This document shows, one piece after another, positions 45,391 to 51,898 of a DNA stretch of 64,000 bases (within the stretch, counting starts at the first letter, position 1; each line of letters begins with the position of its first letter). The notes under the pieces are model-generated. The model made no database searches. It was not told the origin of the DNA and saw only the letters and a list, made by a program, of their open reading frames with translations. A program made the translations under genes and the position numbers. The stretch is from an uncultured delta proteobacterium (GTDB taxonomy: Bacteria; Desulfobacterota; Desulfobacteria; Desulfobacterales; SG8-13), in the NCBI GenBank assembly GCA_963848135.1, contig CAWKCK010000005.1, positions 124,001-188,000 of the forward strand. The letters run 5' to 3'.

Positions 45391-46041
45391 ATGAAACCGG
45401 GAGCCATCGATTACAGTCTTTATTTAGTGACAGACAGAAGCCTTTCCCGCGGCCGATCCACCCGTGACATTGTTGAATCGGCCATCCGTGGCGGTATCAC
45501 CTGTGTGCAGCTCAGGGAAAAAACAGCCACCACACGAGAGTTCATCCATGAGGCCCAGAAGATAAAGGATCTATTGGCAACTTACCATATTCCCCTCATC
45601 ATAAATGATCGACTGGATGTGGCCCTGGCCGTTGAGGCCGACGGTATTCACCTGGGACAAAAAGACATGCCTCTTCGGATGGCCAGGACCATTTCAGGCG
45701 GTCGGATGCTCATCGGCATATCGGTCGAATCCGTCGAAGATGCCGTGGCGGCGGATAAGGACGGGGCGGACTATCTCGGTGTCAGCCCTATCTATGCCAC
45801 ACCCACCAAGACCGACACGGCACTGGCCCTCGGTTTGGAGGGCCTGGCGGAAATCCGTCGGTTCGTGAAGCGCCCGTTGGTCGCCATCGGCGGCTTGAAT
45901 CGGGACAATGCCGCTTCCGCCATCCGTAGCGGTGCCGACGGTGTGGCAGTGGTATCGGCCCTTGTCGCCGCCGAGGATCCCGAACGGGCAGCCCGAGAGC
46001 TGATGCACGTCATTCAAAAGGCCAGAAATAGATGCGTCTGA
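45391..46041 (+). CDS. thiE: Thiamine-phosphate synthase
   Basis: VQLREK, INDRLD, HLGQKD, TPTK, AIGG. Confidence 0.96.
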   Translation: MKPGAIDYSLYLVTDRSLSRGRSTRDIVESAIRGGITCVQLREKTATTREFIHEAQKIKDLLATYHIPLIINDRLDVALAVEADGIHLGQKDMPLRMARTISGGRMLIGISVESVEDAVAADKDGADYLGVSPIYATPTKTDTALALGLEGLAEIRRFVKRPLVAIGGLNRDNAASAIRSGADGVAVVSALVAAEDPERAARELMHVIQKARNRCV

Positions 46042-47045
46042 AAGATATCGGAGAGTTCGGTTTTATCGACCGTATCAGTCAGGGATGTTTGATCCGGCCC
46101 AAGGGGATCGTCAAGGCCATCGGTGACGACGCCGCCGCCTTCCGGACCGCGGCCGACCACCTGACGCTGGTGACCACCGACCTTCTGGTGGAAGGCGTCC
46201 ACTTCCTGCGGGACGCCACCAGTGGCTTCAATCTCGGGTATAAGGCCCTGGCCGTCAACCTGAGCGACATCGCCGCCATGGGGGGGACAGCCTGTAACGC
46301 GTTTGTCAGCATCGCCATTCCGGATGACGTCGCTCTCACCGAACTTGAAGACATCTACCGGGGCATGAAATCTCTGGCCGCCCCATATGACGTCAATATA
46401 CTCGGCGGTGATACAACCCGCTCCACCCGTGATCTGATCATCAATATCACTGTCACCGGCATGGTCTTGGAAAGTGAAGTCCTTTACCGTGATAGTGCCA
46501 AGGCCGGAGACGTAATTTTATCAGACGGATTTCTCGGAGACAGCCGGGCGGGGCTCCACCTGCTCCTGAACCGGATCGAGGCCGACAAGCCCTACCTCGA
46601 AGCCCTTCTGAATGCCCACCTTCTTCCGCGCCCCCGTCTGCACGAGGGCCGCTTCATGGCCCGCCGGTCAGGAATCCATGCTGCCATAGATGTCAGCGAC
46701 GGGCTTAGTTCCGACCTCGGACACATCCTGCGCCAAAGCAAGGTGGGCGCACGTCTTTTCGGTGACCGGATTCCGCTCTCACCCGCCCTGAAGCAATTCT
46801 GTCGTCACCTCGGATTCGATCCGATCGACCATGCTCTGGCCGGAGGAGAAGATTACGCGCTTCTGGTGACGGTCGATCCGGATGAAGCCGAAGGACTCAT
46901 CAAAGATTTCAACGAAACTTTTCACCGCCCGCTTTTCCGCATCGGTGAAATAACCGCGGCGAAAACCTTCGAGTTGCTTGAATCCGGCGGCAAGACACTG
47001 AACATCGCTCCCACGGGTTGGGATCACTTCAAAAAGGAGTCATGA
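46032..47045 (+). CDS. thiL: Thiamine-monophosphate kinase
   Basis: GEFGFI, IGDDAA, NLSDIAAMG, GGDTT, DVSDGL, GGEDY. Confidence 0.96.
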   Translation: MRLKDIGEFGFIDRISQGCLIRPKGIVKAIGDDAAAFRTAADHLTLVTTDLLVEGVHFLRDATSGFNLGYKALAVNLSDIAAMGGTACNAFVSIAIPDDVALTELEDIYRGMKSLAAPYDVNILGGDTTRSTRDLIINITVTGMVLESEVLYRDSAKAGDVILSDGFLGDSRAGLHLLLNRIEADKPYLEALLNAHLLPRPRLHEGRFMARRSGIHAAIDVSDGLSSDLGHILRQSKVGARLFGDRIPLSPALKQFCRHLGFDPIDHALAGGEDYALLVTVDPDEAEGLIKDFNETFHRPLFRIGEITAAKTFELLESGGKTLNIAPTGWDHFKKES

Positions 47046-47048
47046 ATC

Positions 47049-47888
47049 ATGCCAGCGGATAAGAATGGTGAGGTGGCCCTGCGCAATTACACGAGAGTGT
47101 TGACCATTGCCGGTTCGGACAGTGGCGGCGGGGCGGGGATCCAGGCCGATCTCAAAACATTTTCGGCCCTGGGCTGCTATGGAATGTCAGTCATTACCGC
47201 GTTGACCGCTCAAAATACGATGGGAGTGACGGGTATCCATGCCGTGCCGCCCGCATTTGCCGCCCAACAGATGGCGGCGGTCATCGGCGACATTGGTGTC
47301 GATGCCGTTAAAATCGGCATGCTCTACTCTGCTGAACTGATCGAATCGGTCGCCGCAAGCCTGAAACAGCACGGTGTGACCACCATCGTTCTCGATCCGG
47401 TCATGGTTGCCCAGAGCGGTGATAATTTGTTGCAGGAAGAGGCTGTTGTGGCTCTCAAAAAGGCCCTGGTTCCCATGGCAACCGTTGTAACACCGAACCT
47501 ACCGGAGGCAGAAGTCTTACTGGGACGTAAAATCGACGGATTAGATGGCATGCGAACGGCCGCCAGGGATTTGTCGAAACTGGGCTGCCGCAGCGTTCTC
47601 ATCAAGGGGGGCCACATGCACACTTCGGAAAGCAGCGATGTGTTGTTTATCAACGGTGAAAACCGCATCGTGGTCATGCCGGATCGGCGCGTGCAAACCC
47701 CCAATACCCACGGCACCGGGTGCACGTTGTCTTCCGCTATCGCCGCTCACCTGGCCAAAGGCCTTGGTATCGAAGCGGCCGCTCAAAGGGCCAAACAGTA
47801 CATTGCCGATGCGATCCGGGCCGGGGCAGTCTATCGAATCGGACAGGGCAGCGGACCGGTGCACCACTTTCATGAGTTCTGGGAATAA
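47049..47888 (+). CDS. thiD: HMP/HMP-P kinase
   Basis: IAGSDSGGGAGIQAD, TPNLPE, KGGH, THGTGC. Confidence 0.96.
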   Translation: MPADKNGEVALRNYTRVLTIAGSDSGGGAGIQADLKTFSALGCYGMSVITALTAQNTMGVTGIHAVPPAFAAQQMAAVIGDIGVDAVKIGMLYSAELIESVAASLKQHGVTTIVLDPVMVAQSGDNLLQEEAVVALKKALVPMATVVTPNLPEAEVLLGRKIDGLDGMRTAARDLSKLGCRSVLIKGGHMHTSESSDVLFINGENRIVVMPDRRVQTPNTHGTGCTLSSAIAAHLAKGLGIEAAAQRAKQYIADAIRAGAVYRIGQGSGPVHHFHEFWE

Positions 47889-48046: not shown

Positions 48047-48322
48047 TCAGCAGCAGGCCGCCGAATGTTTACCTTTGATCCAGGTCTGAATGATGTAGGC
48101 AGCGCATCCAACTCCCGGGGAGACACGAATCGCCGCAACCGGACAATTGTTGGCGCAAGCGCCACACTCCATACAACCATCGACGTCGGCCACAAGAGCC
48201 TTGCGCCCTTCCAGCACCAGAACGCCATGTGGACAAACCGCCGTGCACATACCGCATCCCACGCAGGCATCTGCGTCGTAGGACAGGGTGACAACGTCAG
48301 GAAGATACCTGAATGTTTTCAT
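48047..48322 (-). CDS. hgcB: Mercury methylation ferredoxin HgcB
   Basis: CVGCGMC..VCP and CMECGAC..NCP, GVGCA, terminal CC; directly downstream of hgcA. Confidence 0.96.
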   Translation of the reverse strand: MKTFRYLPDVVTLSYDADACVGCGMCTAVCPHGVLVLEGRKALVADVDGCMECGACANNCPVAAIRVSPGVGCAAYIIQTWIKGKHSAACC

Positions 48323-48383: not shown

Positions 48384-49628
48384 TCACGCGAAAGCCGACA
48401 CCACCCAGATGGTTGCGGCACAAAGTAAGGCGGCCCCCTGCCAGGGAATCGCCTGGCGCATCTCCTTTTCGACACCCGAAGGTGAGGTAAAGGGTGTCGC
48501 TCCCGTGAAGTTCATGGCCAGAATCGAACTGAAAGCCCCCGTACAGATCAACAGGGCCAAAAGCTCCCATCCGTTGGCGTAGCGCCAACCGGCCGCTGCC
48601 AGCATCACCCCTGATATTCCCCCGGTAAGGAGGCCTTTCAAGGCAAACGTCCGCGCAGGCAGCCAAGGCAGAAGTAGCGGTACGGAAATCGCGCCACCGA
48701 TGATCCCGGCCGCGCAGGCCGCTGCGAGCATCAACCCTCTGTACCAGGCGCCGTTAAAAGAAAATCCGCCCGGTCCGATTCCGGAGAGGATGAATCCGGC
48801 GACCAACACCCAAACCAGGTATTTGGGGATCACGGCAAGTTCCACCGGGATCAGGACAAATCGCTCCCACAGGGAAAACGTCACCTGACGCATACCGGCA
48901 TCGGCATCGAAACCGGACGCCAGAAATCGCTTGAGATCTTTCGCTCTGACGGGGCCCCACATGATCTCGAATCCACACGCTTTTTTTACATGGTGGGCAG
49001 CGACACCGGTGGCCGCCAGCTGGGGCAATACCAGCCGCCGGTGGCTGACAAGCCGCTCCAAACCAGCATTCTTGACGCAACGCACCACCTCGGCGGTGGA
49101 GAATGTCCCCTTGCCGGCAGCACACCAGACGTTGATGCCACGTGTGTCGAGCACCAGGATCCAGGCGTCGATGGCACTCAATTCTCGCCGCAATATGTCG
49201 AAGGAGAGCTTGTAGTTGGCCGTGACCAAAACCGGTGAGTTTTCTCCGGGGGTACCGGTACAATACAACCCGGGAGCAACCAGATAGCGGTTGCGTCCGA
49301 TGCCGCAGCGGACTTTGACACTGGCAAGAACATCGGCAGTGTCAAGAACAGTTCTGACCCGTGGAACTTCGCCCACAGATGTCCTTTGGAATTCAGAAAC
49401 AAAATGGCATAATCGGTATCCCGGTCGCTCATAGGGGCTACAGGGCGGACCAGCGGGTGGACCGCAACATACGGCTTCTCCTTGAGCATCTTGGGCGGCC
49501 GCAACCAAATCCGAATCTGCACCTGCAGATGCGGATTTGTCTCAGCAGCTTTTGGATAGCGTCTCGGTCTGGCCGTCGATGTAAGATTCAGCTGAAAGGG
49601 CTTTGGCGCGATGGCCTGCTTCCTTCAT
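48384..49628 (-). CDS. hgcA: Mercury methylation corrinoid protein HgcA, predicted selenoprotein (Sec at codon 29)
   Basis: Cap-helix NVWCAAGKG, VTANYKLSFD, C-terminal TM helices; in-frame ATG 49628...TGC TGA followed by SECIS-like hairpin (identity near certain; 5' extension ~0.75). Confidence 0.95.
49506..49539 (-). promoter_or_regulatory. Putative bacterial SECIS element
   Basis: CAAATCCGCATCTGC-AGGT-GCAGATTCGGATTTG starting 2 nt after the UGA (49542-49544). Confidence 0.75.
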
Positions 49629-49731
49629 GACTTCGATCTTTCTGCCTCCGATACTATCGCATAACCATAAAGAATGGTCCGGCGGTGGTTCTGCCCGACA
49701 TCAAAAGTGGTCAATAATACTGTCTGGTGAC

Positions 49732-49760
49732 ACCATATGTGTGTGGTGGTGATTATGCAA
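49732..49760 (-). promoter_or_regulatory. Putative sigma70 promoter of hgcAB
   Basis: TTGCAT-17 nt-TATGGT. Confidence 0.5.
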
Positions 49761-49887
49761 GGGGGTTTTATTCTGTTTTTCAAAAACAGATTCGGATATA
49801 CAGACGGGTGCTATAAGTGTTTGGTGAATAAACGGTCAAATAAAAAAACTTTTTTCTACAACCACGCTATGCTCTGGAGTCCATAAA

Positions 49888-50937
49888 TCACTTTTTTCTG
49901 GACTTGATTTCCAGGTCATCGCCGGAATAGCCAAAAGCGGTCAGAATGGAGTGGGCGACCTTGACGGTGTCTTCTGGGCTCAGGTGGGTTTCAACGAGGA
50001 TATTGGTGCCTTCGATATTGACCGGAAGACGCAATTCATCGGGGTCTTCTCTAAAGTAATACTTGTTGTCGACTGAATGCCAAAGCAGTCTCTCGACGTC
50101 CTGGTTGTGCTTGTTAATCAATACTTCACACAGTTTAAGAAGAAATTCGTCCCAGGCTTCCACCTTGAAAACATCATCGGCGAAGGTAAACGCAGTGATA
50201 TCCTGCCCCTTGTAGGTTCGCGGATGCGGAAATGACGCCTTTTCCTGTTCGGTGGCTTCTTCGATGGCGCCGGCTTTGTCGAGTTCTGTCAAAAACTCGG
50301 TGATCATGTCTTTATCGGGCTTGTAGCCGCACAACTTTTCGACCGTATCACGAAACAAATTAACCAGTGTTTCGTGGGGCCCTGAAATAATCTGGTTCCA
50401 GGCCTTTCCCATAGATTTTTGAATGAGCTTGCGTTGGCGTTTGGTCTGAATCGATTCGGCGATCTTTAGGGCCTTGCCCTTGGCCACATTGTCCTTTTCA
50501 AGCAGTTCGATGAGTCGGGTTGCCACTTCCTTGGGCGGTTGTTTCAGAAGATCGAAGGCACAAAACCTTTTCTGCTCGAACGCCCCTTCACTAAAGGACA
50601 GGTAGAACCACCACTTAACCCCGTCGGTCAATACGGCCAACTTCGCACCTTCATTGAGAGCCGAGCCGAGCAGATCTTTCTGGCAACGTTTGAGATCGTC
50701 ACCGACTTTTTCCACGCCAATGAAGACGGCATCGATATTGTTCGTTCGCAATGCAAAATCGATAAGAGATGATTTTACGGAGTGGTCCGGTTTGACTTCA
50801 TCGACGTCGAAAATATCCCATCCCAGAAGAGACAACAACCGGATGACGATGGCCTGCTTTGTGGAGGCCTTGTCGAACGTGCTAAGTCGTTTGTTCGCTC
50901 TCAGCGTCTCGAAAAAGGCGATAATTTGTTTTTCCAT
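49888..50937 (-). CDS. HsdR-N (type I restriction R-subunit N-terminal)-like domain protein
   Basis: TKQ..V..LL..LGWD, IDFAL, LTDG.KW.FY; catalytic ExK appears degenerate. Confidence 0.7.
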   Translation of the reverse strand: MEKQIIAFFETLRANKRLSTFDKASTKQAIVIRLLSLLGWDIFDVDEVKPDHSVKSSLIDFALRTNNIDAVFIGVEKVGDDLKRCQKDLLGSALNEGAKLAVLTDGVKWWFYLSFSEGAFEQKRFCAFDLLKQPPKEVATRLIELLEKDNVAKGKALKIAESIQTKRQRKLIQKSMGKAWNQIISGPHETLVNLFRDTVEKLCGYKPDKDMITEFLTELDKAGAIEEATEQEKASFPHPRTYKGQDITAFTFADDVFKVEAWDEFLLKLCEVLINKHNQDVERLLWHSVDNKYYFREDPDELRLPVNIEGTNILVETHLSPEDTVKVAHSILTAFGYSGDDLEIKSRKK

Positions 50938-51052: not shown

Positions 51053-51898
51053 TTACCCCTGCATCCGATAGAAAATGGCGGTGACAACAGCATACCCCAG
51101 GACGGCGATGGTCAGGCTGACGCACAAACCGGCCAGAAGCCTGTGGACCTGGGTTTCGCGCTTTTTTTCCTGATAGCCCAATAGCGCACCGAGTAACACA
51201 CCGGCAATGCCGCCGCCGATATGTCCCCAGTTGTTGATACCCGGTATCAGGAGGCCGAATATGAACAGCCCGATCGCCCACGAACCGACCTGGCGGTAAA
51301 TCGCCTGACCGTAAACCCCGCCGCGACTCTTGCCGTAATACAGAATGGCCCCAATCAGGCTGCAAATCGCTGCCGAGGCGCCGATCGTATAAGCGATACC
51401 GGCAAGGTAAGACACCAGGAAACCGGCCGTCCCCCCGGCGGTGTAGATGATGAACATCCGGTAGGTACCGAATTCTCTCACAGTCAGTGAAGCGAGTTGC
51501 GTAAAAGCGGCCATGTTGAAAAAAATGTGCAGAATGCCGCCGTGTAAATAATTGGCTGACAGCAGGCTCCACCACCGCCCGAAGCGGTCAATGGGAATGG
51601 TTCCGGTCATTCCAAGCAATATCAGACTGCCGTTGTCTGGTGACAGAAATGCCAACGGATTCATGGACAATCCGATGCGACTGGAACTGAACAATAGGGA
51701 AAGGAGGAAGAAGCCGACGTTGACCACCACCACACTGCGAATAAGGCGATCCGAATGTTTCAGACCGATGGCACTCGAAAAACGGTTCCAGAAAGAAGCC
51801 GGTCGCTTGATACCACAATAGGGGCATTGGGATTCGCTCCGGCTGATAAGTCTCCCGCAGTTGGGGCACAGTATCGACTGTCGTTGGTTGGTGTCCAC
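51053..51898 (-). CDS. Rhomboid protease with N-terminal Zn ribbon
   Basis: CPNC...CPYC; H...HI.FNM, GASA, GHIGG. Confidence 0.92.
   Translation of the reverse strand: MDTNQRQSILCPNCGRLISRSESQCPYCGIKRPASFWNRFSSAIGLKHSDRLIRSVVVVNVGFFLLSLLFSSSRIGLSMNPLAFLSPDNGSLILLGMTGTIPIDRFGRWWSLLSANYLHGGILHIFFNMAAFTQLASLTVREFGTYRMFIIYTAGGTAGFLVSYLAGIAYTIGASAAICSLIGAILYYGKSRGGVYGQAIYRQVGSWAIGLFIFGLLIPGINNWGHIGGGIAGVLLGALLGYQEKKRETQVHRLLAGLCVSLTIAVLGYAVVTAIFYRMQG

Follow-up and report, generated by a model that had tools for sequence, protein, structure and literature searches.

We analysed a 64,000-nucleotide (nt) stretch of DNA (the window) from an uncultured delta proteobacterium of the Desulfobacterales lineage SG8-13 (assembly GCA_963848135.1, contig CAWKCK010000005.1, positions 124,001 to 188,000). 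The subject of this report is its hgcA gene and a UGA codon in the 5′ part of the hgcA frame. The full frame occupies 48384..49628 on the minus strand. Residues 88-413 of the product (48390..49367), which hold the corrinoid-binding and transmembrane domains, matched NCBIfam NF040863 (HgcA_corrinoid) with 420.6 bits (cut-off 275) over profile positions 1-324 of 325. hgcB lies directly downstream on the same strand (48047..48322). Its product matched NF040864 (HgcB_ferredoxin) with 119.7 bits (cut-off 99) and has a C-terminal Cys-Cys (CC) pair; the site GVGU, where HgcB occasionally carries selenocysteine (Sec, U), is a Cys here (GVGC). The methylmercury that HgcAB form poses an environmental health problem, and the antagonism between selenium and mercury is a long-standing theme.

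ORF and gene callers start hgcA at a TTG codon (49506..49508). The same frame continues upstream through a single in-frame UGA and reaches a start codon beyond it, ATG 49626..49628, which is the first ATG, GTG or TTG in frame after an upstream TGA. This ATG is followed by 27 sense codons, up to and including the TGC of Cys28, and then by the TGA; from there the frame runs free of stops into hgcA. With TGA translated as U, the frame encodes 414 residues and ends at a terminal TGA (48386-48384). The translation begins with MKEAGHRAKALSAESYIDGQTETLSKSCUDKSASAGADSDLVAAAQDAQGEAVCCGPP and carries a Cys28-Sec29 dipeptide (CU; 49542..49547, TGC 49547-49545 and TGA 49544-49542) in the context SKSCUDK, followed by SASAGA. 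Cys54-Cys55 (TGT-TGC, 49464..49469) stand in V-C-C-G-P, 26 residues separating C28 from C54. The N-terminal arm ahead of the core is 87 residues long. In an AlphaFold2 model based on a 54-sequence alignment, the predicted local distance difference test (pLDDT) score was <50 for residues 1-38 and about 43-63 for residues 39-60, and the model was confident from about residue 61 on (mean 82.8). In view of this low confidence, the arm is probably flexible.

We propose that hgcA starts 40 codons earlier than called and that the UGA is read as Sec with the help of a selenocysteine insertion sequence (SECIS) element inside the open reading frame (ORF). We estimate the probability of this reading at roughly 0.8.

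A SECIS-like hairpin (49506..49539, minus strand) begins 2 nt past the UGA. It has 15 pairs with one C.U mismatch and an apical loop AGGU (49524-49521), and 17 nt separate the UGA from the loop. The 71-nt hairpin context had a minimum free energy (MFE) of -28.8 kcal/mol (z = -3.48), and none of 200 shuffles was as stable. The bacterial SECIS (bSECIS) consensus, taken together with the Cys/Sec-pair criteria from PMC13188914, comprises a loop of 3-9 nt with G in the first two loop positions, an upper stem of 4-16 bp, a distance of 16-37 nt from the UGA and an MFE <= -7.5. The hgcA hairpin agrees with it in loop (AGGU), upper stem (6 bp), distance (17 nt) and energy (-20.6 kcal/mol for the 48 nt after the UGA). 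This energy was matched after 28 of 3999 random TGA trinucleotides of the genome (0.7%). The permissive consensus fitted 470 of the 3999 and is weak alone; a strict version (loop at +16..+20, dG <= -16.5) fitted eight. An Rfam scan of 49300-49800 at E <= 10 returned two chance-level matches to unrelated families (E 5.6 and 7.3) and no SECIS family, and a terminator scan of 49400-50000 found nothing terminator-like, with no T run after the hairpin. The hairpin alone is uncommon but not decisive, as chance would give hundreds of such structures among the 218,217 TGAs of the genome. The case for Sec rests on conservation and context rather than on the hairpin alone.

The frequency of equally stable hairpins after random TGAs also suits a different explanation, which we consider unlikely: the UGA is a genuine stop that closes a 28-codon upstream ORF or lies in an untranslated leader, and a Cys-only HgcA with one CC motif is made from TTG 49508. 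The hairpin would then be a regulatory or chance structure covering the start codon. Judged by eye, the AGGU(G) loop, which lies 11 nt ahead of the TTG, could function in ribosome binding. However, loop type and distance match both the SECIS elements of the genome itself and the published Sec sites of other HgcA genes, as follows.

The source assembly (G000) is 98.65% complete. selA (622 bits), selB (374 bits) and selD (372 bits) were found above their cut-offs, and a tRNA-Sec scored 76.5 bits (gathering score 47). As all four components are present, the organism is equipped to read UGA as Sec. selD itself carries one in-frame TGA, as do one formate dehydrogenase alpha subunit gene (fdhA) and 5 of 10 FlpD/MvhD matches; at least seven other UGA-containing selenoprotein genes are thus present in the genome. 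When the 48 nt after seven such UGAs were folded, six had an apical loop starting with G at +17 to +23: GGUC at +17 in selD, GGUCU at +18 in fdhA, and GGA or GGC at +20 to +23 in four FlpD genes. The hgcA loop is AGGU at +17. Since it shares loop type and distance with the other Sec genes, the hgcA hairpin resembles, by computed fold, the accepted SECIS elements of this genome.

The FlpD/MvhD-type TGA genes were located at C18:820179-824340, C18:790555-790917, C5:13077-13445 and C5:290036-290407. In the five genes of this type the in-frame TGA falls at codon 9 or codon 60 of the domain, and the genome is Sec-rich. A second SelB-like gene lies outside the window on contig C15 (43659-45516). Its matches to selB profile positions 13-105 and 106-580 are in different frames, one base apart. 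A frameshifted paralogue, programmed frameshifting or an error in sequencing could account for this.

Of 61 genomes searched across the genus, family and order, 33 have HgcA. Two congeners, G007 (83% identity) and G006 (77%), matched from residue 4-5 on, with one TGA inside. Both keep the ATG, the purine-rich tract before it, the frame (with one 6-nt indel), TGC-TGA and the peptide SASAGA, whose codons form the hairpin apex. G057 also has a TGA, but in residues 176-414 at a contig end, outside the arm. Scans of the genomes of 185,579 species and of metagenome contigs gave 160 further HgcA loci. One of these, L152 (a metagenome contig, 66% core identity), has a TGA 24 residues before CC, the same spacing as in the window, and this UGA is followed by the same 14-nt apex, UCUGCAGGUGCAGA. 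The apical 14 nt are identical in all four lineages (source genome, G007, G006 and L152), and four 4-fold degenerate third positions within them are invariant, which suggests that constraint acts on the RNA at the hairpin apex.

Contigs from two other sediment metagenome studies (runs X5 and X8, about 95% identical) also keep the ATG, the frame and TGC-TGA, and the TTG is unchanged in them. In X5, 3 nt are inserted in frame directly ahead of the CC codons, and one lower-stem pair is lost through a synonymous change. In X8 one stem G-C pair has become G.U; the contigs have about 4x depth, and single differences may be errors. Codon 16 (TAC, window 49581-49583) differs among these sequences: G006, G007 (both V-E-S-C) and X8 (TAC to TGC) have Cys in place of Tyr16, and the source genome seems to have lost this further arm Cys.

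Conservation bears on whether the UGA could come from faulty sequencing or assembly, or be a recent inactivating mutation in a decaying arm. Fast evolution and predicted disorder of the arm would suit decay. However, the same TGA occurs in four lineages (66-100% core identity) and in contigs of two further studies, and the degenerate positions of the apex do not vary. This explanation is highly improbable and is effectively refuted by the conservation.

The preliminary description of this locus had placed the called start at TTG 49508 and traced the frame on to ATG 49628. It had also read a peptide with a CU pair and a CC(GPP) pair 26 residues apart, and had drawn, 2 nt past the UGA, a 15-bp stem with a single mismatch and the loop AGGU as a fit to the bacterial SECIS model. 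We obtained the same coordinates throughout and an identical translation, and folding reproduced the hairpin and its fit. Two of the checks that it had named, for Sec machinery in the genome and for conservation in relatives, turned up the complete set (selA, selB, selD and tRNA-Sec) and a UGA, frame and apex kept in G007, G006 and L152 as well as in the X5 and X8 populations.

The relatives also distinguish between recoding and a true stop. The TTG is in frame in the source genome, G007 and L152, as initiation downstream of a stop would require. G006, however, has TTA in its place, and its sequence from the UGA to the CC codons contains no ATG, GTG or TTG; the CCGPP motif of G006 therefore needs read-through, and its database proteins (P0004-P0006) begin after the motif. 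The UGA is in frame with hgcA in all four lineages and both further populations. In L152, the peptide of 31 residues between the GTG start and the UGA gives a gap-free alignment, beginning at residue 1, with the N-terminal end of P0007/L027, an HgcA of 417 residues whose arm is not interrupted by a stop (13 of 31 identical; E = 3e-6 for this single comparison). This collinearity speaks against a true stop, and in our view no other single observation argues better that the true N-terminus lies ahead of the UGA.

Several observations weigh against the Sec reading. In three of the four lineages an in-frame TTG stands 12-14 codons past the UGA. L152 has GAT-TGA, and so D-U, not C-U; the nearest relative without Sec (L027/P0007) carries Phe rather than Cys at this very position in its gap-free alignment with L152. 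Covariation in the hairpin was insignificant among four sequences (paired cells 73.3%, reached by 36 of 500 shuffles; covariation score 0.156, reached by 52 of 500), as a chance structure would also have it; the five apical pairs never vary and are uninformative here. The hairpin segments of G007 and L152 by themselves were no better than shuffles (z = -0.54 and -0.12, respectively), and the minimum-energy fold of L152 differs from the shared hairpin, with its first loop at +23. The Shine-Dalgarno match ahead of ATG 49628 is weak in the source genome (by eye). A promoter scan of 49400-50000 found no sigma-70-like site on the minus strand upstream of hgcA; the only such site was on the plus strand, and shuffles gave as many. 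Substitutions between ATG and UGA fell on the three codon positions as 8/8/11, 9/12/11 and 12/8/13, with no third-position bias, and this leader without a coding-like pattern suits a true stop. The linker from UGA to CC shows no third-position excess either, though it is at least partly coding; the codon-position test is therefore blind here, since on either side of the UGA the arm is evolving nearly neutrally. An ND132 HgcA construct produced in E. coli and carrying its His tag at the N-terminus is reported to have methylated mercury in lysates (PMC11588087, in excerpt); the arm is therefore probably an accessory that is not part of the catalytic core and not needed for catalysis as such. Finally, the Sec in this protein is a prediction from sequence and computed folds.

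The persistence of the TTG raises a further reading, which we hold to be quite unlikely, namely that two isoforms are made: a Sec form when selenium is available and otherwise, after a stop at the UGA and re-initiation at the TTG 33 nt downstream, a shorter Cys-only HgcA. The TTG is kept in three of four lineages, is unchanged in X5 and X8, and lies in the 3′ arm of the hairpin at a short distance from the UGA. G006, however, has no TTG, and in the source genome and G007 pairing with CAAA in the lower stem can account for the codon. If the isoform reading were true, selenium supply would tune which form of HgcA a sediment bacterium makes, and how much. Metatranscriptome run X18, the only RNA run, contained a small share of the sequence words, but none of it could be placed on 49300-49900, which says nothing on transcription either way.

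We compared the proposed Sec with the one already published for HgcA. Haft & Gwadz predicted most HgcA proteins to be selenoproteins: 20 of 20 genes were extended upstream through one UGA, the pentapeptide PCUGP was perfectly conserved, and in the ND132 extension GP comes directly after CU, with a further 11 residues between GP and PGY (bioRxiv 10.1101/2022.07.06.499078, in excerpt). A 2024 paper cites this prediction and a 2026 review lists HgcA with the motif CU, both as far as their excerpted text goes. In the HgcA described here, the same 13-residue spacing to PGY leads to V-C-C-G-P (C54-C55), as it leads to PCUGP in the aligned rows L098 and L180. Sec is not found in PCUGP 13 residues before PGY; it is residue 29, in S-C-U-D-K. 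Because the same spacing reaches VCCGP, the UGA of this gene is not the published site, which is present here in its Cys form, but a different one 26 residues upstream. The preliminary description had named the report of Sec-containing CU extensions by Haft & Gwadz. That attribution is correct, with one amendment: the published PCUGP site aligns with CCGP, and the present UGA is not a further case of it. We found no description of Sec at this second site in the main text of the two papers in which HgcA and selenocysteine both occur. Judged from the sequences, Sec can very probably sit at a second cysteine pair of the HgcA arm that is not the published one.

A survey of HgcA arms covered 190 loci, 187 of them distinct. 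The canonical site was CUG in 28 distinct loci and CC in 106. Five had CU in another near context (four of CUPA/CUPQ type; L217 differs), six had U without an adjacent C, and 42 had neither CC nor CU near the core. The combination of a canonical CC with an upstream UGA, a start before it and a hairpin after it was present in 4 of 187, namely the source genome, G007, G006 and L152. A UGA within 45 residues upstream of the CC motif occurred at 14 loci; nine of these UGAs stand, by eye, just before an obvious Met start and were taken as ordinary stops. As a positive control, the 28 canonical PCUGP loci were folded in the same way, giving a mean dG of -17.6 and a first loop at +17 to +20 in 21 of 28. 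The clade of the window gave a mean dG of -17.9, and three of the four members showed the AGGU loop at +17 in their MFE folds.

Most full-length related arms have two CC motifs about 27-29 residues apart, with the consensus M..CC....VCCGPP. When arms were aligned with MAFFT and U was entered as C, C28/U29 fell on the columns of the first CC motif, in which 39 and 42 of 45 non-gap residues are Cys. This run is biased by the way U was entered, and it was repeated on the arms alone with U masked as X and 39 relatives. L-INS-i placed C28 and X29 on two Cys columns (33 and 36 of 39 relatives), and in G-INS-i and E-INS-i the pair moved over by one column, so that 36 of 39 relatives have Cys in the column of C28. 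By these alignments Cys28-Sec29 coincides with the first CC motif within one residue, which speaks against a true stop. However, the homology of a dipeptide in such a low-complexity arm can be placed no more closely than this, and L152 and L027 carry an additional D-C-(C)-E-T-G-S motif upstream of the pair.

Other arms in the survey showed further Sec contexts. L051, L053, L215 and L231 have [AGS]-C-U-P-[AQ], not PCUGP, with AGGU or AGUU loops at +19. L107 and L141 have C-U-P-P-K-A-P-P-G with loops at +16, and L141 (a PPCUPPK variant) has a CC motif downstream of the CU. Within the genus of the window, L042, L044, L046 and L051 have HgcA arms of at least three types and only 49-55% core identity to that of the window; the types include two-CC (G001, G009 and G011) and an A-C-U-P-A-K Sec type (G013). 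At least three arm types in one genus at such low identity suggest, from sequence comparison, that hgcAB spread by horizontal transfer. In L044 and L046 the upstream frame encodes a helix-turn-helix protein, which we take to be an ArsR-type regulator, and ends at a TGA just before the hgcA start.

The preliminary description had also claimed that standard gene callers truncate hgcA, and database proteins bear this out. The nearest ones have 324-373 residues, compared with about 414 in the full frame, and none covers residues 1-60. P0002 (373 residues) begins at the TTG; P0003 (97% identical, 330 residues) and the G006 proteins P0004-P0006 (338 residues) begin after the CC motif, and the L152-like proteins P0009 and P0011 begin just after the UGA. 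A protein database search with residues 1-60 among proteins of 228-727 residues gave 57 candidates, none at E <= 0.01; records bearing U may escape such a search.

The genes around hgcAB have no evident link to it where a function could be assigned. On the plus strand, 45391-47888 encodes a thiamine-phosphate synthase, an AIR-synthase-related (ThiL-like) protein and a phosphomethylpyrimidine kinase; upstream on the minus strand, 51053-51898 encodes a rhomboid protease with an N-terminal zinc ribbon. The 349-residue protein encoded directly upstream of hgcA (49888-50937, minus strand) matched no Pfam family at E <= 0.001 and is kept in the same position before hgcA in G006 (L026).

In the mechanism that we propose, hgcA would be translated from ATG 49628, and SelB bound to the hairpin 2 nt downstream of the UGA would help the ribosome to insert Sec at 49544-49542. 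The predicted product is a 414-residue HgcA with a flexible N-terminal arm of ~60 residues that carries Cys28-Sec29 and Cys54-Cys55, both chalcogen pairs standing ahead of the corrinoid and membrane domains. The arm would most likely bind Hg(II) or methylmercury and pass it to or from the corrinoid active site. This role is proposed because of the analogy with the disordered CC tail of HgcB, for which a part in Hg handling has been proposed (PMC7305189, in excerpt), and with CU motifs, for which a metal-ligand role has been proposed (bioRxiv 10.1101/2022.07.06.499078). Where Sec insertion failed, translation would stop once 28 residues had been made, and the level of full-length HgcA would therefore hinge on selenium.

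If Sec is able to sit on either vicinal-Cys motif of the HgcA arm, this argues that both motifs are functional sites of one kind, for example ligands for metal or methylmercury, and not one site plus filler. For this clade, hgcA catalogues built from called genes lose the arm, and surveys that use PCUGP to detect Sec in HgcA would count these proteins among the Cys forms. The gain in practice is modest and consists of a corrected gene model and, for mutagenesis, a natural variant pair with Sec at motif 1 or at motif 2.

E. coli fdhF is the prototype of bacterial SECIS/SelB recoding. The hgcA element resembles this system in a 4-nt loop with G at position 2 followed by another G, and in agreeing with the consensus on all four counts; it differs in that the region matches no Rfam family, and contact with SelB is predicted here. 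Cys-form HgcA proteins with two CC motifs (e.g. P0015-P0121) have the same arm layout and spacing, with C28/U29 falling, to within one column, on the first CC and C54/C55 on the second, whereas both of their motifs are Cys-Cys and no UGA is present. The HgcB CC tail and the C-terminal pair of MerA (PMC7305189, in excerpt) likewise place an adjacent thiol or selenol pair on a flexible segment near an active site; in HgcA the segment is N-terminal, one residue would be Sec, and metal binding is proposed by analogy. The CU selenoproteins of the SAO system (SaoL, SaoB and SaoC), as far as the excerpted text of Haft & Gwadz describes them, share the rare CU dipeptide and a proposed heavy-metal binding, but belong to unrelated protein families in another genomic context. 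The HgcA form of Haft & Gwadz is of the same family (NF040863). It likewise has a UGA that conceals an N-terminal extension, a Cys-Sec pair, a genome equipped with Sec machinery and an in-ORF hairpin whose G-rich loop lies 17-20 nt after the UGA. That form has PCUGP where the present protein has VCCGP; here the arm is longer and the predicted Sec stands in SCUDK.

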